Of a stretch of DNA of 12,424 bases, positions 2,284 through 11,491 are shown in pieces. Position numbers and translations under genes: made by a program. Origin of the DNA: Promethearchaeota archaeon (GTDB lineage Archaea; Asgardarchaeota; Lokiarchaeia; Sigyniarchaeales; SOKP01); NCBI GenBank assembly GCA_048938005.1, contig JBHLMQ010000030.1, positions 26,381-38,804 on the forward strand. The letters are read 5' to 3'. Below the pieces are notes generated by a model, which was not told the origin of the DNA, did not search any database, and saw nothing but the letters and a program-made list of their open reading frames with translations. Numbering within the stretch: the first letter of the stretch is position 1; the number at the start of each line of letters is the position of its first letter.

Positions 2284-4182
2284 TTAAAATTTCTCTAAAC
2301 CTAATTCTCTTATTTTTGCTTGAGTTGGATTTCCAGTTATTTTGTCCCATCCACGTTCATCATAATAACCATCAAGTAGTTGATTAGCAATTTCAGGAGT
2401 TATTATGGTTTCTCCGAAAAAATCTCGGAAGATAAGCTCTGTATCTCCAAAATTCAATGGTTTAAACCATTCTTCTGGAAATTTATCATCTTTTCGAGAA
2501 AATCCCACTTTCATGTTTAGAATTTTAAGTAAATTCCAAGATCTTTCAGCTGCTATATGCAAATCCTCAGATTTCATATTAAACCCTGTCACTGCGTTAA
2601 AGAAATCTGTAGCTGATTCTAATCCGTAGAAACGATTCATTTGAGCTCTTGCACAGAGACCTAATGAAGTTAAAACAGTATACCAATCTTCTGAATATCT
2701 TGTCAATCTTCCTATATTTATTACCATTTCTTTTACTGGGGGGGAGAATATTCTAGCAATCGCAGATTTAGGAATACCCATTCTTGAAAAATGAATATTA
2801 AACTTTTCTATTGAACTTCCAGCACCTAAATAGGTTGGAGAGCCTCCAGATGCAACATGAGCACCTTTAGGATTTACAACTTGTTCAAATTCCATAGTAC
2901 CAAGGCGTAAAAGTCGTGGTTCAAATATGATATCTAAACCTTTAACAGTAAGCATTTCATTTTCAATTGAATCATAAGCTTCTGCCAATTTTTTCCATCC
3001 ATCAGCTAAAAGATTTCCAAATTCTTTCCTATATGTGATAATTTCTATAAGTTTAATTAATGTATTATAATCCGTTTTCCATTCCATTCCTGTATTTTCT
3101 TTGGTTAAAATACCTTTCTTATATAAAATTGTACAAAATTTCAACAAAGATGTAATTGTTAATGAATCTAATCCATATCTATTCACAATATCATATGCTT
3201 TAATAGCTTCATCAAAATTTATTAAATTTTCAAGTGTAAACATCAAAGCAGGATTAATGATGGAAGAAGTATAATTTAATAATCCAGAATGACTTCCTTC
3301 TTGGAGTTCAAGAATATCTTTATCACCCATCGGACAAGAAGGACAAGCTATCCGTCGTTTCTTTAACTTATTAAGGTAAATTCGTTCATTACATTGTCTG
3401 GCCTTTTCTTTCTGACCTGAACCTGTTAGCAGCATGCCAACAGGAAGACTTCTCAGCATTCCTAACTGATGCCATGATTCTCTTTGAGGATAATTTTTAA
3501 TGCGTTCTAATAGCTTACTAAATAATTCATTAAATTTTTTCGAATTAGCAATAGAGACTCCTAGAGTTCCTTTTACTGCAATTGCTTTAAGATTTTTAGA
3601 ACCCATAACTGCTCCAAGTCCTCCTCGTCCAAATGTTGATGTTCTATCAATTAAAGCTAGGGAACCTCTTACCAAATTTTCACCAGCTTGTCCAATTGCA
3701 ATTACTCCACAATTATTATGCTTTTTTTGTAAGAAATGAGTTGATTCTACTATATCCCGGCCCCAGATTTCTTTTGCGTCTATTAAATCAATGTTATCAT
3801 CCAATATTAATAAAGAAACTGGTTTATCTGCTTTACCTGAGATGATTACATGGTCAAATCCCGCATGTTTTAACTGGAATCCAAAACTCATACTCCCACA
3901 TGAATAAGCAATTGCCCCTGTTGCTGGAAATTTACTTGTACATACAGTTCGGGAAGATCCAGGGGTTATTGTTCCTACTAAAGGTCCTACACCAATTATG
4001 AGATAATTTTCAGGAGATAATGGATCTATATTTGGCTTAATTAATTCAGCAGCAATCTTTGTATTTATACCAAGTCCACCAATAAATTGCTTAATGTCCT
4101 CAATATTTTGTTTTCTTACAGTTATTTTGTTATCTGTGAGATTAACATTAAGAATCTTACCAGTATATCCTTTCAATTCCAT
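2284..4182 (-). CDS. Aldehyde:ferredoxin oxidoreductase family (tungstopterin, AOR/WOR-like) protein, divergent
   Basis: N-terminus GYTGKILNVNLT, LKHAGFDHVIISGKA, IGQAGEN, GRGGLGAVMGSKNLKAIAV, YGLD, SLGLC and YYDERGWD. Start placed at the ATG at 4182 (TGATG overlap with the ferredoxin stop, preceded by AGGAGGAGG) rather than the TTG at 4185. Confidence 0.92.
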   Translation of the reverse strand: MELKGYTGKILNVNLTDNKITVRKQNIEDIKQFIGGLGINTKIAAELIKPNIDPLSPENYLIIGVGPLVGTITPGSSRTVCTSKFPATGAIAYSCGSMSFGFQLKHAGFDHVIISGKADKPVSLLILDDNIDLIDAKEIWGRDIVESTHFLQKKHNNCGVIAIGQAGENLVRGSLALIDRTSTFGRGGLGAVMGSKNLKAIAVKGTLGVSIANSKKFNELFSKLLERIKNYPQRESWHQLGMLRSLPVGMLLTGSGQKEKARQCNERIYLNKLKKRRIACPSCPMGDKDILELQEGSHSGLLNYTSSIINPALMFTLENLINFDEAIKAYDIVNRYGLDSLTITSLLKFCTILYKKGILTKENTGMEWKTDYNTLIKLIEIITYRKEFGNLLADGWKKLAEAYDSIENEMLTVKGLDIIFEPRLLRLGTMEFEQVVNPKGAHVASGGSPTYLGAGSSIEKFNIHFSRMGIPKSAIARIFSPPVKEMVINIGRLTRYSEDWYTVLTSLGLCARAQMNRFYGLESATDFFNAVTGFNMKSEDLHIAAERSWNLLKILNMKVGFSRKDDKFPEEWFKPLNFGDTELIFRDFFGETIITPEIANQLLDGYYDERGWDKITGNPTQAKIRELGLEKF

Positions 4183-4427
4183 CAATTATCCTCCTCCTTA
4201 AACCTTAGAGCACCATATAAACAATGTTGAACACATTGACCACATTTAATACAGGTGTCTAAAAAAATAATTTTTGGGGCTAATCCATATCTATCCTTTA
4301 TTTCCAAATTAGCCTTTAAGGGATTAAATATCTTATGATGGGTATATGAACACCATAATTTACATAAAATACAACCAGTACACTTTTCCTCATCAATTAA
4401 TATATTAATTATACTTTCTTTTACCAT
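4182..4427 (-). CDS. 2x[4Fe-4S] ferredoxin-type protein, probable AOR partner
   Basis: 81 aa with CTGCILCKLWC and CIKCGQCVQHCLYGAL motifs. Its stop overlaps the AOR start by 1 nt. Confidence 0.9.
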   Translation of the reverse strand: MVKESIINILIDEEKCTGCILCKLWCSYTHHKIFNPLKANLEIKDRYGLAPKIIFLDTCIKCGQCVQHCLYGALRFKEEDN

Positions 4428-4453: not shown

Positions 4454-5944
4454 TTAAAATTTTATTATTAGTCCATTTTTTCTTTCCATTTCTTTCAATA
4501 ATGGGGGTAGTTCTTCAAATTTATTGAAATTTAAATCTAAAATTTTTAATGATGAAAGAGATGCGATTGAATTAGGCAATTTTTCAAGTTTATTCCCCCA
4601 TAAATTAAATACTTCTAAAGATGATAGAATCCCAATCCATTCTGGAAGAGTGGTGAAGTTGTTCCAACTAAGATTTAAAAATTTAAGTGATTTTAATTTT
4701 GTCATTGAAGAGGGCAAATCGCTTAATTGATTATTTCTTAAATTTAGTTTTTCTAGAGAATTTAGGTTTCCTAATGAATCAGGGATATTACATAATTTAT
4801 TATCGTATAATTCTAATTCCTTTAATGAATGAAACGAGCCAATCCATTCTGGAAGCGTTACTAACTTATTACCTCCCATTCCTAACTTTTCTAAGAATAA
4901 AAGTGGTTGAACTTCCTTCGGGATTGTCGTAAAATTATTCCAACCTAGTTCAAGTTCCTTTATTGAGGCACTCAGATTAATTTCTATTGAAGTTAATTTA
5001 TTTCCATGTAAATCTAAAGATTTAAGTGAAGAGAGAGAACTTATTGATGAAGGAAGATGTGTTAACATATTATTTCTCAAATTCAAGTTCTCAAGTGTTT
5101 TAACTAATCCAATCGATTCAGGAAGGTTTCTTAATCTATTAGTTTTTAAGTTTAAAGTCTTGAGTGATTTGAAATAACTGAAATCTGGTAATTTTGTTAT
5201 CTTGTTATAACTTAAATCCAAATATTCAATTGATCTGTTTAAAACAGTTGGGATATTTATAAGATGATTAAACCTTAAATCACACCTTTTAATAGTATTT
5301 AGAGAGAATATTGATTCAAGGATTTTTTCTAGTTTACTTAAACCAGAACTATATCTTTCAACATTAGATAAGTCTAATTCAGTAATCAAACCCGATTCGT
5401 TAATTTCAAACTTTATATAACCAAATGTAAGTTTTAGAGAAGAAAGGATATAATAACTAATCAGTATATCAGTAAGTTCTTTATTAGAAAAATCTTTAAT
5501 ATTCCTTTTCTTAAATAAACCATTTAAATTATATTTATATTTTCTTCTGCGGAATCTATTTAATTTATCAATCAAAACTGATTTAGACTTATCCTGATTA
5601 ATTTCCCCTAATGTTGATATTATTGTTATCAAACATTTTAATGATGTTTCGTGCTCAAAAGCCCATGAGATTGGAGCTAAAGCTTTATTGATATAGAGAT
5701 TCTTTAAAACTTTACATGTTAAATTTCTAACATTTTCATTAGTATCAGAAATTAAAAGATGTTCTAAAAATTTGAAAGTTTTTTCGTCAGTAGTCCCAAT
5801 TTCTTCTAAAATCTTAATACTTTCTATTCGAGTTTCAGGGTTTTCAGCATTGTCAATTAGAGTTAGTAGTAATTCAATTGCAGATGGTCTATCTAAATCC
5901 TTATTTTTTAAATCCTCAGATATCGCGTTTGGAGTTAAAGGCAT
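4454..5944 (-). CDS. Leucine-rich repeat protein with N-terminal HEAT-like helical repeats
   Basis: 496 aa. N-terminal helical repeats (ETRIESIKILEEIG, LLISDTNENVRNLTCKVL) followed by ~12-13 LRRs of 21-23 aa with consensus LxxLxLxxNxLxxLPxxI. Confidence 0.92.
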   Translation of the reverse strand: MPLTPNAISEDLKNKDLDRPSAIELLLTLIDNAENPETRIESIKILEEIGTTDEKTFKFLEHLLISDTNENVRNLTCKVLKNLYINKALAPISWAFEHETSLKCLITIISTLGEINQDKSKSVLIDKLNRFRRRKYKYNLNGLFKKRNIKDFSNKELTDILISYYILSSLKLTFGYIKFEINESGLITELDLSNVERYSSGLSKLEKILESIFSLNTIKRCDLRFNHLINIPTVLNRSIEYLDLSYNKITKLPDFSYFKSLKTLNLKTNRLRNLPESIGLVKTLENLNLRNNMLTHLPSSISSLSSLKSLDLHGNKLTSIEINLSASIKELELGWNNFTTIPKEVQPLLFLEKLGMGGNKLVTLPEWIGSFHSLKELELYDNKLCNIPDSLGNLNSLEKLNLRNNQLSDLPSSMTKLKSLKFLNLSWNNFTTLPEWIGILSSLEVFNLWGNKLEKLPNSIASLSSLKILDLNFNKFEELPPLLKEMERKNGLIIKF

Positions 5945-5977: not shown

Positions 5978-7516
5978 TTAAACTCTTTCTATCATCATTC
6001 CACCTAACCGAATAGGTCCCCCTGTAAGATTATATATTTTTTCTGCTTTTCTTAATTTGGACTCACTATGCGAATAAATTTTAAAAACCATTTCTCCTTC
6101 TTTGATTTTAGCACCTTGTTTTTTAACTATTTCCACTCCAGAGGTTTTCGAACTAGGACATCCCGCAGTTTTTGCTATTTGATTGATTATTGAGTTATTT
6201 ACTTCAACTATATAACCTTCTTTGGAACTAAAAAATTCTTTAACGTGGGAACCTAACTTAATATCTTCGGGTTTAATTTCAGGATCGCCCCCTTGAGCCT
6301 TAATAATTTTTTTCATTTTTTCATAGGCTCTACCTGAACGTAATATATCTTTTGCCATACTTTGACCCATGCCTTTTTGAGCTTTTCCACTCATTTCAAG
6401 AAGAATACCTGCTAAATCTGTAGATTTTTCTATTAACGAATTTGGCCCAGCAGAGTAGTCCCGTAATAATGTAAGAGCTTCTTTAGCTTCTAAAGCAGGA
6501 CCTACAGCATGACCTATAGGTTGATGAGCTAATGTGAGGGCACATTCTGCCTCAATTCCTACATTTGCAGCGATTTCTTTAAATAAATAAGCAAATTGTT
6601 TTCCCTTTTCAGGTGTTGTAAATTTTGTTCCTTCACCTACAGGTATATCAAGTACAAGTTTTTTGACTCCTAATGAGAGCTTTTTTGTTAGAATGGAAGG
6701 AATCATAAGACCAATAGGATCCATATGTAAAGGACGCTCAATTTCTATTAAAATATTATCCGCTGGGGCTGTTTCAAGAGCTCCACCCCATATCATACAT
6801 GCGTTTTCTTCAGATACAATTTTTTTTAACTCTTCTGGGGTAAAAGCAACAGGAGCTAAAACTTCCATTGAGTCTGCTGTACCAGAAGGTGATGTTATAG
6901 CTCTTGTTGAAGATTTTGGAATAGTTAAACCAGCAGCAGCAACAATAGGTACAATAATGAGAGAGACTTTATTTCCCGGTACACCACCCGTACTATGTTT
7001 ATCATAGACATCCATTCCAAAGTAAAAGATTTCTCCACTCCTAGTCTCTGATAAAGCTAAAGCAGTCATCTCTTCATTATCCATTCCATTAATCGACACT
7101 GCTGTTATGAATGCTGCTAAATCTATTCGCGATAGGGAACCAGAAACCGCATCTGAGATAATTCCATTTATTTCTTCACTAGATAATTTTTGTCCTTTTA
7201 TCTTCTTTTGAATATATTTGAATGAATCAGGCGGATCTGCTGGTTTTACTGAAACTACTGTCTCATTTTTTAATTCCTTTTTATCTCTTAGGAGATTACG
7301 GAATACTCCAATTTCTCCCGGTTCAACGATAGTTCCTAAATAATCAATTTGAATAATTGCTACCCAATATTTTTCTTCTATTAACTTTGATCTAATATTC
7401 TTTACAAAGACACGTTCACCTGCTTTTTGCCCTAACTCTTCAGCGTCTTTGATATTTAAAACAATATCTTTAACATTTCCAGTTTCAAAATTGATTTCTT
7501 TAACTTTTAATTTCAT
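5978..7516 (-). CDS. deoA: AMP (nucleoside monophosphate) phosphorylase, thymidine phosphorylase family, archaeal type
   Basis: 512 aa. DKHSTGGVPGNK, PKSSTRAITSPSGTADSME, LDIPVGEGTK and QPIGHAVGPALEA motifs, plus the ~90 aa N-terminal extension typical of AMP phosphorylases. Confidence 0.93.
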   Translation of the reverse strand: MKLKVKEINFETGNVKDIVLNIKDAEELGQKAGERVFVKNIRSKLIEEKYWVAIIQIDYLGTIVEPGEIGVFRNLLRDKKELKNETVVSVKPADPPDSFKYIQKKIKGQKLSSEEINGIISDAVSGSLSRIDLAAFITAVSINGMDNEEMTALALSETRSGEIFYFGMDVYDKHSTGGVPGNKVSLIIVPIVAAAGLTIPKSSTRAITSPSGTADSMEVLAPVAFTPEELKKIVSEENACMIWGGALETAPADNILIEIERPLHMDPIGLMIPSILTKKLSLGVKKLVLDIPVGEGTKFTTPEKGKQFAYLFKEIAANVGIEAECALTLAHQPIGHAVGPALEAKEALTLLRDYSAGPNSLIEKSTDLAGILLEMSGKAQKGMGQSMAKDILRSGRAYEKMKKIIKAQGGDPEIKPEDIKLGSHVKEFFSSKEGYIVEVNNSIINQIAKTAGCPSSKTSGVEIVKKQGAKIKEGEMVFKIYSHSESKLRKAEKIYNLTGGPIRLGGMMIERV

Positions 7517-7566: not shown

Positions 7567-8865
7567 TTATAATTTTATTGAAAGAGGGAAATCTTTAACC
7601 TCTCCAATTAGGTTTTGGTCTGGATCTTTAAATGTTGCTTTTATCTTAATAGAATAATCTCCCGCTTGTTTCGGTTTTAGATTGAGTTCCCATTTTATAT
7701 TTTCATTTGATCTGAGTGTATATATTTGTTTTTTTAAAGTGCCTCTCATTACTTTAAGATTTTCTGGAAAATCTATTTCTATATTAAGATCTAAAGCTTC
7801 ACCTTCACTTTTATTTTCAATAAGGATTTCTAAGGGAAAAGTTTGACCAATGAGAGGAGGTCTCAAACTTTTCATAGAAATGTCTAGCGTTGGAGGAGGA
7901 GATATTAGATTTGGATATAATATTTCAGAAATTTCATAGAAAAATTTTAATTTCCCATCTATTTCTGAAGTTAATAAAATAGGTCCAATATATGGTTTTT
8001 CCATTTGAAAATGAGGTTTTATTACCAAATCTACTTGACAATTTTGACCCGGGATTATTTTTATTGGTAAATCTGGTTTTTTATGAAAAGTAAAATTATC
8101 AGAAATATTTAATCCAATTTTAGAAATTTTTAATTCCTCTATGTTATAATTATAAAAAGTATTTGTTTTTATATTTAAAAGAGGTTTTGTATCAATATAC
8201 ATTGTTAGATTTATAATCTCATTAGTTGTATATACATTCTTATCCAAATTTAATTTAGTTATTAAAGAAGCAATTGTTTTTGCTATTACCAATGCTTGTT
8301 TTGCTAATTTTATCTCACCCTCATGAAATTTAAAACTTTCAAAATCGTTCTTAATCTTTTTTATATAATTCTCTTTTTTATCCTTTGTAGCAACTGTTAA
8401 ATCCTTTATTAGCTTAATTAGCGGATTATCCTTAAAATACGCATCATCTACATAAGTTTTAATTTTTTTTACTATATTTAATCCTTCTTCTTGTTGTCCT
8501 TCTACAAATAGACATAGATAAGATAAACTTGAAAACATAATGAAATTATAATTACGATCACTAGAATTTCGTAAATTGGGAATATAATTCAGTGCTTCCT
8601 TGAAGAATTGATAAGCTTCTAGGAAATTATTATTAAAAAGAGATGCATTACCAGCATTTCTTAAAAATTCTAATCCATGTGCATATTTATCCTCATTTAT
8701 TGCACTTTTTGCAGCATTAAAAAAACAGGCTTTTGCCATTTCGTAATTACCTAAATTCATGAAATTATTTCCACCAGTATTAAATAATTTTGCTGCTCGT
8801 TTATATTGCATTGCTTTATAAAGTTGCTCTGCTTTCTTTAATTGTTTTTCAGGATCTTTTCCCAT
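7567..8865 (-). CDS. Hypothetical protein: N-terminal TPR/alpha-SNAP-like helical repeats plus two C-terminal Ig-like beta-sandwich domains
   Basis: 432 aa. Residues ~1-190 show a TPR-like AxxxFxxA pattern. The C-terminus has an Ig/CARDB-like pattern (GQTFPLEILIENKSEGEALDLNIEIDFPENLKV...LKPKQAGDYSIKIKATFKD). No signal peptide or TM helix is apparent. Domain calls are by eye. Confidence 0.7.
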   Translation of the reverse strand: MGKDPEKQLKKAEQLYKAMQYKRAAKLFNTGGNNFMNLGNYEMAKACFFNAAKSAINEDKYAHGLEFLRNAGNASLFNNNFLEAYQFFKEALNYIPNLRNSSDRNYNFIMFSSLSYLCLFVEGQQEEGLNIVKKIKTYVDDAYFKDNPLIKLIKDLTVATKDKKENYIKKIKNDFESFKFHEGEIKLAKQALVIAKTIASLITKLNLDKNVYTTNEIINLTMYIDTKPLLNIKTNTFYNYNIEELKISKIGLNISDNFTFHKKPDLPIKIIPGQNCQVDLVIKPHFQMEKPYIGPILLTSEIDGKLKFFYEISEILYPNLISPPPTLDISMKSLRPPLIGQTFPLEILIENKSEGEALDLNIEIDFPENLKVMRGTLKKQIYTLRSNENIKWELNLKPKQAGDYSIKIKATFKDPDQNLIGEVKDFPLSIKL

Positions 8866-8973: not shown

Positions 8974-9038
8974 CCGAAACCTTCACAAGGCTAGTCCCAA
9001 TTCAACTAAAATTTATTTGAAAGGGTCATTCTATTCGG
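8974..9038 (-). promoter_or_regulatory. Putative SECIS element, eukaryote-like kink-turn type
   Basis: Minus-strand RNA: CCGAA-UAG-AAU-GA-CCCUUUCAAAU-AAAUUUU-AGUUGAAUUGG-GA-CUA-GCCUU-GUG-AAGGU-UUCGG. AUGA at 9029-9026, AAA 11 nt later in the apical loop, GA at 8996-8995. It directly follows two genes with in-frame UGA at Cys positions. Folded by hand. Confidence 0.78.
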
Positions 9039-9501
9039 TTTTTTTCTTTTTTGATTCTTTCTCCTCTTTCTTAGAAGAATTAGAATCTTTTAAAGGATTG
9101 CTACCTAAGTTTTTTATAATCTCTGAAATGCGACTAGCTTCTTCTTGAAATCTTTGTCCTTCAGCAGCACTACAGTGAAACATTTGAATTCTCTCTGGTG
9201 AAAGTCCAACTATTCTAAGAATTTCTTTTGTATATTTAACATTCCTTTCTGCAACCAAATTCCCACTTTCATAGTCACATTCACCTTGGTATCAAGCTCC
9301 GATGACGATTCCGTCAGCACCCTTACCTATTGCTCGCATCATTAAAGAAGGAGTTACTCTTCCAGAGCAATTAATCCTCACAGGTCTAAGTGTTGCGGGA
9401 TATTGCGCTCTTATAGTACCTGCCATATCACCAGCACCATATCCTCACTTCCAGCATAAAAATGCTAAAATTTTCATATCTCCATTAGATCTACTTGCCA
9501 A
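9031..9501 (-). CDS. mvhD: MvhD/VhuD (F420-non-reducing hydrogenase delta / FlpD family) [2Fe-2S] subunit, selenoprotein with 2 Sec
   Basis: One continuous frame: (M)ASRSNGDMKILAFLCWK-U-GYGAGDMAG...RINCSGRV...GADGIVIGA-U-YQGECDYESGN...SAAEG. TGA at 9445-9447 and 9292-9294, TAG stop at 9031-9033. The TTG start at 9501 lies 5 nt after GAGGTGA; an alternative ATG is at 9477. 156 aa. Confidence 0.93.
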
Positions 9502-9514: not shown

Positions 9515-11491
9515 CTATACCTCTTCTAGAATTGCGTCTATTTGTTTTTCATATTGAGGTTCTCTATAATATCTAAGGGTTATGGCTTCTGAAGGACAAT
9601 TAGCCAAACAACTGCCACATCCCCTACATAAAATCTCATTCACCTCAGCTCCATCATCGTTTAGATTTATAGCGTTATATGGGCAATTCAACTCACATAA
9701 TCCACATTTTGCACATCGTTCTTTATCAACCGATGCTCGGATCAGTAAAATCCGATATTTGTCTTTTCCCATTAGTCTAGCAAGTGAAGATGCTGCTGCT
9801 CTACCTTGTGCTATAGATTCAACTATAGATTTTGGACCTTGGCTGACTCCTGCAAGAACTATTCCAGGAATCTTTGTATCTATTGGATTTAATCTAGCAT
9901 GAAATTCTTTAAAGAATCCATCTTGACTGTTTTCCAATTTAAGTATCTTTCCTATTTTTTTAACACCAGTAGCGGGAACCATTGATGCAGAAAGTACAAC
10001 CAAATCATACTCTAGTTCTTTTAATCCACTTGAACCCAATGTATTTTGCATGATTATTTTTAGATTATGAGTATTAGGATCTTCTTTTATTCTGCTTATG
10101 TTTGTTCTAATATATTTTATACCCTCCTTCCTTGAGAGAGTGAAATATTCTTCATAATCTTTCCCAGCAGCTCGCATATCCATATAAGCAACAGTAATAT
10201 CTGCCTCTGGATAATGTTGTTTGATTAATTTACTGTTCTTTATTGAAATCATACAGCATACACCAGAGCTACAATAAGTATTCATGTTTAAATCCCTTGA
10301 GCCTACACATTGAATGAATAATATTTTTTTTGGTTCTTTCCCATCCGAAGGTCTTACCAAATGTCCTATGGTTGGTCCGTTCGGAGCTAACATTCTTTCA
10401 AGTTTTAGTTGAGTAATTACATTAGGATATTTATTATAGCCCAAATAGCCCATAGGTGGTTCAAATTCATCCCAACCTGTAGCGACCACGATTGAGCCTA
10501 CATCAATCTCTACGATTTCGTCTTGTTGATCAAAATCAATCGCGTCTAGTTCACATGCTCCTTTACATAATTCACATTTGATACATCGTTCCATATCAAT
10601 TTGGGCTAAAGAAGGAACCGCTTGAGCAAATGACACATATATAGCTCTCCTTGAATCCATTCCCTCATTGAATTCATTATAACCAAAAGCGGGGCACACT
10701 TCAAAGCATGCTCCACACCCATTACAATCATTTGTTACATATCGTGCCCTCTTTCTAATTTTTACAGTAAAATTCCCTACAAAACCAGAAACATCTTCAA
10801 CATCACTATACGTGTATAAATTGAGTCCAGGTGTTCTTGCCGCTTGAAGCATTACTGGCCCCAATATTCATATACTACAATCATCTGTAGGAAATGTTCG
10901 ATCTAATTTAGCCATTTTGCCACCTATGGTAGGATTTTTTTCTACAAGATGTACTTCAAAACCTTCTTCAGCTAGATCGATTCCTGCAGACAATCCCGCT
11001 ACTCCACCGCCAATTATTAAAGCTTTTTTTGTTATATCAACTTCTTTAACTAAGATCTTTTCTAAAACAGAAGCTCTTGCTACGGCTGATCGCATTATAT
11101 CTTCAGCAACTTTTTGAGCTCCTAGTTTATCTTTTTTATGTACAAAACTAGAATGTTCACGGATATTAGCAAATTCAAGATAGGATGAATCAATACCCAT
11201 TGCTTCTAAGACACTTTTAAAAACGGGCTCATGAGTTTTAGGTGTACATGATGCTACAACTAATCTATTTGCATTTGTTTCGACCATTTTTTGTTTTATG
11301 AATTCTGCACCAGGTTCTGTACAAAGACTGATATATCGCTCTGCAGCAACTACATTTGGCAATGTCTTTGAGAATTCTACTAAAGCAGAATTGTCAATTA
11401 CCTCAGCAATATTAAGCCCTCAATCGCAAATTAAAACAGCAATCCTTATTTCTTCGTCATATTGATTTGTCTTGTTTGTTGTTTCTACCAT
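9515..11491 (-). CDS. hdrA: Heterodisulfide reductase subunit A (electron-bifurcating FAD/Fe-S protein), selenoprotein with 2 Sec
   Basis: Single frame from the ATG at 11491 (after AAGGT) to TAG at 9515-9517, 658 aa, joining ORF-track fragments 10868-11362 and 9515-10864. In-frame TGA at 11420-11422 ([14 protein letters not shown]; canonical CxCG) and 10868-10870 ([14 protein letters not shown]; canonical DCxxCIL). Also GGGVAG FAD motif, four CxxCxxCxxxC motifs and QCVGSRD...YCS...CCM. Confidence 0.95.

Follow-up and report, generated by a model that had tools for sequence, protein, structure and literature searches.

A probable SECIS element of the lokiSECIS type behind the hdrA-vhuD genes of an Asgard archaeon and the co-varying lower domain on which its kink-turn core is placed

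Introduction

Two adjoining genes of a Promethearchaeota archaeon, viz. an hdrA-like gene and vhuD, carry four in-frame UGA codons between them, and the question that is raised by this locus is what in their transcript would allow these codons to be read as selenocysteine (Sec). The stretch of DNA that was analyzed in this work, which is referred to below as the window, is 12,424 nucleotides (nt) in length (contig JBHLMQ010000030.1 of the assembly GCA_048938005.1). An earlier note on this DNA had proposed that a eukaryote-like SECIS element in the form of a kink-turn is found directly behind the second of the two genes, and that the stop codon of this gene forms a part of the lower stem of the element.

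Elements of this kind have been described in two previous studies. In the main text of Mariotti et al. (2016; PMC4989117), the lokiSECIS is presented with an AUGA / A-rich loop / GA layout for which a kink-turn is expected; the genes hdrA and vhuD are described as occurring always in tandem, with one SECIS after vhuD and with an hdrA that never stops with UGA, and the SECIS may overlap the end of the coding region and even supply the stop codon (PMC4989117). An eSECIS-like layout is described in the main text of the work of Huang, Xiao and Zhang (2024; PMC11227280), which covers more than 400 Asgard genomes, and a SECIS that is common to hdrA and frhD as well as its overlap with the stop codon are also covered there (PMC11227280). 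Since the layout, the kink-turn, the shared SECIS and the stop overlap are all contained in the main texts of these two papers (PMC4989117, PMC11227280), the novelty of the element was overstated in the earlier note; the kind of the element, its gene context and the mechanism proposed for it had all been described before. The results presented here concern a further copy of it, its conservation among related species, and the structure of its base.

Probable Sec Codons of the hdrA and vhuD Genes

The hdrA-like gene (9515-11491, minus strand; open reading frame read with TGA as U) codes for a protein of 658 amino acids (aa) in which 4Fe-4S and FAD/NAD-binding domains are identified by Pfam. Its in-frame UGA (Sec) codons are located at codon 24 (11422-11420) and at codon 208 (10870-10868), and a Sec position at codon ~200 is given as the canonical one for HdrA in the main text of PMC4989117. 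The gene ends with a UAG stop codon (9517-9515), which agrees with the non-UGA hdrA stop that is demanded by the lokiSECIS model as described there (PMC4989117). The vhuD gene (also mvhD; 9031-9477, minus strand), whose ATG start codon at 9477 (with a TTG at 9501 as an alternative) is located 37 nt past the hdrA-like gene, ends with the UAG at 9033-9031, and its translated product is FlpD/MvhD (Pfam, E 4.4e-40). Its Sec codons are codon 11 (9447-9445) and codon 62 (9294-9292), both of which are conserved Cys/Sec sites. Each of the two genes is open only when two TGA codons are read through, and the four UGA codons are located 263, 416, 1839 and 2391 nt upstream of the element described below. 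A tRNA-Sec is present in the genome, where it scores 61.7 bits against an Rfam cut-off of 47, and ARAGORN concurs with this identification.

Other genes of the window are an ATP-dependent DNA ligase gene on the plus strand (507-2264) and, on the minus strand, an aldehyde:ferredoxin oxidoreductase gene (2284-4185), a gene for a repeat-rich protein that is leucine-rich by eye (4454-5944), a thymidine-phosphorylase-like gene (5978-7516), and a gene for a 432-aa protein with a sub-threshold match to a TPR-type Pfam family (7567-8865).

Core of the Element

The element is located on the minus strand directly behind vhuD, at 9033-8992. In its 5' to 3' direction it consists of the UAG at 9033-9031, which is both the vhuD stop codon and the 5' strand of the kink-turn C helix and pairs with 8994-8992; an AAU bulge (9030-9028) and the 5' G and A of the tandem G.A pairs (9027-9026); the SECIS arm, a hairpin of 29 nt (9025-8997); and the 3' G and A of the tandem G.A pairs (8996-8995), followed by the CUA that makes up the 3' strand of the C helix (8994-8992). 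The AUGA of the SECIS corresponds to 9029-9026. The stem of the arm is 9 bp in length (9025-9017 with 9005-8997) and consists in the window copy of 7 standard pairs, a C.U and a U.U, whereas its apical loop of 11 nt (9016-9006) is A-rich at the 5' end and has AG at the 3' end. The UAG, the AAU bulge, the two GA steps, the hairpin and the CUA had all been placed identically in the earlier note; its upper helix of ~11 positions has to be shortened, as the two extra positions pair in 3 and 22 of 81 orthologues, respectively, and a stem of 9 bp is supported. Stop triplets are found in all three frames within the element (9033-9031, 9028-9026 and 9008-9006), and hence any frame that enters the element would be terminated there.

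The energy of folding does not distinguish the element from shuffled sequences, either for a 56-nt piece (z = 0.03, with 97 of 200 shuffles equally good) or for an 81-nt piece (z = -0.55, 48 of 200 shuffles). As the fold is no more stable than that of shuffles, the case for the element rests on its conservation and context. The centroid fold pairs 9034-9028, a stretch of 7 nt that overlaps the stop codon and the AUGA, with 8972-8966, which follows shortly behind the outer helix described below; this arrangement would compete with the kink-turn.

Conservation and Covariation among vhuD Orthologues

A scan of genome contigs from Asgard MAGs with the VhuD protein has identified 80 orthologous loci, and the alignment that includes these and the window consists of 81 sequences, of which 80 are distinct. 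TGA is found at the second Cys/Sec site in all 80 loci and at the first site in 79, the remaining locus being outside the protein alignment there. A SECIS core is present at the same place behind vhuD in 80/80 of these loci, with the exact 9/11/9 geometry in 74 and with variants in loop or stem length in 6. In the 81-sequence alignment, 89% of the cells of the 9-bp stem are paired and compensatory changes are found at 8 of its 9 pairs, so that the covariation for which the earlier note had suggested a search at the 3' ends of mvhD orthologues is indeed present. The structure as a whole is 88.5% paired versus 78.0% in column shuffles (0 of 500 reach the real value); the pairing drops to 31-48% when the partners are slid by 1-3 columns, and the covariation score is 0.350 versus 0.165 for the 81 orthologues.

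The nucleotides that define the core are conserved to a very high degree. AUGA is found in 79 and GUGA in 2 of the 81 orthologues, while the U of the bulge, the G and the A of both strands, and the closing G and C are each invariant (81/81), and the bulge columns are without length variation. The loop is 11 nt long in 75 of the 81 sequences, ends with AG in 75, and has at least three A among its first five positions in 79. GA directly 3' of the stem is shared by all 81 orthologues; across 16 genomes of the genus, a wider set of 90 elements has GA at this position in 66 and AA in 24. Compensatory changes are observed in this wider set at all 21 pairs, and it is 90.0% paired versus 66.1% in shuffles and 38-55% with slid partners, although these counts come from a model-fitted alignment of close kin and therefore overstate independence and lean towards structure.

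The pairs of the C helix are retained to different degrees. Its first pair is G-C in 80/80 distinct orthologues, its second pair is formed in 56/80 (A-U 33, U-A 17, U-G 5, G-C 1), and its third pair, U-A, in 29/80. In the 90-element set the first pair is G-C in 77 and A-U in 12 and is never unpaired, and the second and third pairs are formed in 70/83 and 50/86, respectively. These patterns indicate that a C helix of 2-3 bp is real and that it is short, as a kink-turn requires.

The eukaryote-like character that the earlier note had assigned to the element stands, as its AUGA, 9-bp stem, 11-nt A-rich loop ending with AG, and GA are those of the published lokiSECIS. The kink-turn has fared equally well: the full sequence signature (a G-C closing pair, a 3-nt N-A-U bulge, and GA on both strands) is found in 81/81 sequences, which supports the assignment of the core as a kink-turn at the level of its sequence. 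Based upon these features and their gene context, we consider it very likely that the element serves as the SECIS for hdrA-vhuD, a bicistronic operon in an Asgard archaeon of the Lokiarchaeia type, the lokiSECIS being the same as the Asgard eSECIS-like type I element.

An Outer Helix and a Side Hairpin at the Base of the Element

The conserved structure reaches past 9033-8992, which was the extent given to its lower domain in the earlier note. An outer helix, referred to as helix I, is formed by CCGAA (9038-9034, minus strand), located in the last two sense codons of vhuD, and by UUCGG (8978-8974), and a side hairpin, P3 (8990-8980), is built from four base pairs (8990-8987 with 8983-8980) that close a loop of 3 nt (8986-8984) with an invariant G. 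The stem of P3 is 92% paired among the orthologues, its third pair occurring as A-U in 42, U-A in 22, U-G in 5 and C-G in 2, and in the 90 elements it is 88% paired with compensatory changes at all 4 pairs. The CCGA/UCGG of helix I is near-invariant in the 80 distinct orthologues, with a variable distance to the element; the near-invariance makes helix I uninformative for covariation among the VhuD orthologues, in which P3 covaries. In the 90-element set, which consists of several gene families, all five pairs of helix I show compensatory changes, one of them occurring as G-C in 41, C-G in 18 and A-U in 12. Helix I, the SECIS arm and P3 are predicted by both RNAalifold and the MFE fold of the window sequence, whereas the UAG/CUA pairing is predicted by neither. 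A U5 tract (8964-8960, minus strand) lies 10 nt past helix I; archaeal RNA polymerase terminates at oligo-T, and this tract is a likely end of the transcript.

On the 5' strand in the window, the 5 bp of helix I run without a gap into the 3 bp of the C helix, and P3 is inserted in the 3' strand; hence the base of the SECIS would be a three-way junction from which the kink-turn is three pairs away. The outer helix, the side hairpin and the junction are not mentioned in the main texts of PMC4989117 and PMC11227280, and literature searches extending over titles and the beginnings of abstracts found no three-way junction for an Asgard SECIS. The co-varying three-way-junction base, to which the alignments point, is in our view a modest new point.

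A related arrangement is known from the k-junction of the TPP riboswitch, in which a third helix likewise branches off close to the turn from the strand without the bulge (Wang et al., 2014; PMC4005666). In the k-junction as described there, the insertion point of this third helix faces the loop of the kink-turn directly (PMC4005666). The element was not assigned to the strict k-junctions, since P3 begins 4 nt past the 3' GA (8990 vs 8995), after the C helix of 2-3 bp and one unpaired base.

Position of the vhuD Stop Codon

The location of the stop codon relative to the element differs among the 81 orthologues. In 32 of them the stop is a UAG within the C helix, as in the window; in 7 it is a UGA that is shifted by one base and overlaps the stem; in 14 it is the UGA of the AUGA; and in 25 it is a UAA that is found 12-18 nt upstream, just ahead of the outer helix. 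Single sequences have a UAA beginning 5 nt ahead of the AUGA, a UAA 29 nt upstream, and a UAG that closes the apical loop. In the 32 orthologues of the window type, the base opposite the U of the stop codon is A in 17, U in 6, C in 4, G in 3 and other in 2, which marks a position without pairing constraint. The description of the stop codon as the lower stem is hence correct for this gene, in which the last two sense codons are involved as well, and it is its conservation that fails, with 32 of 81 orthologues sharing the arrangement. The presence of the stop codon in the stem thus appears to be a lineage-specific detail and not a conserved design.

The earlier note had gone further in suggesting that the stop codon is built into the lower stem under selection, such that terminating ribosomes gate the SECIS and couple the insertion of Sec to the flux of translation. 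As the 5' strands of helix I and of the C helix fall within the last two sense codons and the stop codon, a terminating ribosome must melt the element; with the usual ribosome footprint, a ribosome that terminates at 9033-9031 has melted helix I, the C helix and a part of the arm. Also in favor of this suggestion are the fact that in 79/81 orthologues the stop codon is within the AUGA core or at most 18 nt upstream of the AUGA, where the footprint would cover a part of the element, and the stop triplets in all three frames. However, the melting of the element would follow for any stop codon within ~20 nt and points to a compact placement rather than to a demonstrated regulatory device. The stop position, which ranges from the loop to 29 nt upstream, drifts freely while the RNA remains constant, and this argues against a conserved stop-in-stem mechanism, as does the free variation of the base opposite the U of the stop codon in the very sequences that share the arrangement. 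Another element of the same genome is located 89 nt past its stop codon, and the overlap is thus not required. In the published account, the proximity prevents the recoding of nearby UGA stop codons (PMC4989117), and the effect of the terminating ribosome on the element is in essence already printed in the main text of that paper as a minimum-distance constraint (PMC4989117). A coupling to flux that has been selected for is consequently unlikely in our estimation, and the reading that we prefer is that of a SECIS that acts on the UGA codons upstream of it.

Specificity of the Element for Sec-Containing Genes

The covariance model R1 was built from the orthologue sequences, with the window included among its 81 rows. 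It identifies a single element for both genes in the window, with a score of 83.2 bits versus 10.3 bits for the next match (E 6e-17, obtained with the window among the training rows). Seven elements are identified by R1 in this genome, each behind an ORF with at least one in-frame UGA, and 4-10 elements per genome are found in 15/15 genomes of the same genus. A strict motif has 9 matches in the 3.7-Mb genome, 7 of which are the R1 elements, while five genomes simulated by a first-order Markov model contain 1, 0, 1, 0 and 0 matches; a loose pattern gives 69 matches in the genome.

A tblastn search of the genome with VhuD has identified 14 matches of the MvhD family. A SECIS core is found 4-56 nt from the alignment end in 3/3 of the Sec-type paralogues, which have TGA at both sites, whereas it is found in 0/11 of the Cys-type paralogues within -30 to +260 nt, a control that consists of paralogues of one genome only because all 80 orthologous loci are of the Sec type. 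An equal presence of the element behind Cys-only genes, which the earlier note had named as evidence against its proposal, is accordingly not what is observed. A fourth Sec-type MvhD paralogue, on contig C12, was under the tblastn threshold, and the element is present there as well. A second close vhuD paralogue with two TGA codons (contig C21:9374-9900; 57-58% identity) is followed, 23 nt past its stop codon, by a 9/11/9 core with 9/9 pairs; R1 misses this element, the flanks of which differ, and an outer helix and a side hairpin can be drawn for it by eye.

These observations also bear upon the possibility that the structure is mainly an element of the transcript 3' end (a terminator or an exonuclease block) and not a Sec signal. 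Its location at the 3' end of the operon, with the U5 tract 10 nt on and with helix I closing the whole structure, would suit such a role, but the 11 Cys-type paralogues that are without it also need 3' ends, its invariant AUGA/GA kink-turn signature and A-rich loop are those of the published SECIS, and all 7 of the R1 matches follow an ORF with an in-frame UGA, which together make this role very improbable. A chance hairpin beside a stop codon in AT-rich DNA, for which the folding energies and the 69 loose matches might be adduced, is already refuted by the comparative data (conservation with compensatory changes in 80/80 loci, 9 real versus 0-1 simulated matches of the strict motif, and the E value of the model in the window) and deserves practically no credence. 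The SECIS reading is the one that is followed below.

Outside the genus, R1 at E <= 0.001 identified nothing in 10 genomes from three other families of the order, for each of which 150 first-look candidates were scored. These 10 genomes do have TGA-bearing vhuD-like genes, and a relaxed core pattern finds a SECIS-like core behind 5/10 of the vhuD-like genes and has no match behind the other 5/10. An outer helix and a side hairpin can be drawn by eye for the five cores.

Other Candidate Selenoproteins

Several genes other than vhuD that precede elements of this family are of interest. For at least 10 of the 90 elements, the R1 SECIS is directly preceded by the gene of a protein of ~160 aa with two adjacent in-frame UGA codons (e.g., locus L087:1002-1502 on contig C17 of genome G000; also L152, L154-L158, L161 and L162). 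Its Sec-Sec dipeptide is part of a conserved HAD-UU-ADV or GC-UU-EKV motif, no Pfam family matches it at E <= 1, and it is outside the seven Asgard selenoprotein families that are listed in the main text of PMC11227280. It represents a candidate for an unreported selenoprotein.

A second group consists of small single-pass membrane proteins (45-90 aa) that are rich in Gly over one stretch and have a single in-frame UGA close to where the helix ends on its C-terminal side; each of them is followed by a SECIS. Examples are L083:1290-1427 (G000, contig C73) and L082:580-816 on the minus strand (G000, contig C80), and similar small ORFs precede L092, L104, L106, L113, L115, L118, L135 and L139; Pfam gave only weak noise for these ORFs. 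In L083, the UGA is three codons ahead of the stop codon and the SECIS is located 89 nt past it. These ORFs are candidates for small selenoproteins, and they may resemble the eukaryotic membrane proteins with a C-terminal Sec.

Lastly, an hdrA-like gene with one in-frame UGA (L086:17-1573; G000, contig C78) has its own SECIS 14 nt past its stop codon. This element is an AUGA_AA variant, with no vhuD between the gene and the element, and the arrangement departs from the single element that, according to the main text of PMC4989117, is common to hdrA and vhuD in all cases.

Comparison with Known Elements

In comparison with the lokiSECIS as described in the main text of PMC4989117, the core of the element shows no difference, and it is similarly located directly after vhuD, with one element for hdrA and vhuD. 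The element also fits the Asgard eSECIS-like type I model of PMC11227280, which combines a GA_[G/A]A core with an upper stem of 7-15 bp, in which up to 2 mismatches are allowed, and a loop measuring 8-20 nt. The 3-bp family-specific lower stems that are reported there for frhA and selD are comparable to UAG/CUA here, whereas the main text of that work is without a lower-stem consensus for hdrA/frhD and without a side hairpin (PMC11227280). A scan of the whole window against Rfam at E <= 10 gave no SECIS or kink-turn family and two weak unrelated matches, and the lokiSECIS has no match to the Rfam SECIS models according to the authors of PMC4989117 as well. As there is no Rfam family for it, the membership of the element in this class rests on the printed features and on our own covariance model.

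The type I SECIS of eukaryotes is similar to the element in its AUGA...AA...GA layout, its kink-turn core, and its action from the 3' UTR on distant UGA codons. The differences are an upper stem that is shorter here (as described in PMC4989117), a position that abuts or overlaps the stop codon, and a base that would be a three-way junction. The C helix, the 3-nt bulge and the tandem G.A/A.G pairs are shared with kink-turns of the Kt-7 type. SBP2 was not found according to the main text of PMC4989117, and the presence of two L7Ae-domain genes only in the genome is in line with this reported absence.

The VhuD SECIS of Methanococcales and Methanopyrus, which was compared by its description only, belongs to the same gene (PMC4989117). 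The methanogen SECIS is described as having a GAA_A asymmetric internal loop between two G-C clamps (PMC11881835, PMC11227280). An assignment of the element to the methanogen type was rejected upon inspection, as there is no GAA_A loop in the 9-bp stem. It was likewise not assigned to the C/D-box or other L7Ae-guide RNAs, for which there was no Rfam match and no C/D box pair by eye.

Proposed Mechanism and Significance

In the reading that we favor, the RNA from ~9038 to 8974 would fold from helix I through the C helix and the kink-turn into the 9-bp arm, with P3 in the 3' strand. The folded structure would recruit, by direct contact or via a kink-turn-binding protein, the elongation factor that is specific for Sec and carries Sec-tRNA(Sec), and this recruitment would allow the four upstream UGA codons on one hdrA-vhuD transcript to be read as Sec. 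Recruitment to the four UGA codons, which is the published reading, is also the most likely one. The conservation of sequence and structure, the covariation, the association with Sec-type genes only, the single copy for both genes and the tRNA-Sec are shown by the data, whereas we infer the binding partners, the bicistronic transcript, the action on distant codons and a kinetic coupling of any sort.

This copy of the element does not represent a new kind of signal, and the published model is confirmed by it in one more genome. What is gained is a sharper structure, which is based upon 81 orthologues and 90 elements and consists of a C helix of 2-3 bp and a co-varying outer helix with a side hairpin between them. 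One may speculate further that the functional Asgard SECIS is not the published hairpin but the kink-turn placed on a three-way junction, in which helix I would be coaxial with the C helix of 2-3 bp and be accompanied by the side hairpin with its invariant loop G; that this lower domain, which is conserved in all of the elements examined here over several selenoprotein families, is needed for recognition by the archaeal SECIS-binding factor; and that terminating ribosomes reset it, as its 5' strand is formed by the coding end. This is a tentative proposal, to which we give a minor chance of being correct. A lokiarchaeal SECIS was not functional in Methanococcus maripaludis, according to PMC11881835, and if the proposal is true, the need for the lower domain could explain such a failure of a heterologous reporter, provided that the construct lacked this domain. 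Designs for binding and reporter studies should span ~9042-8968 and not the hairpin alone. As this family of elements has been used to argue for an Asgard origin of the eukaryotic Sec-decoding signal, correct structural models of its members are of importance.
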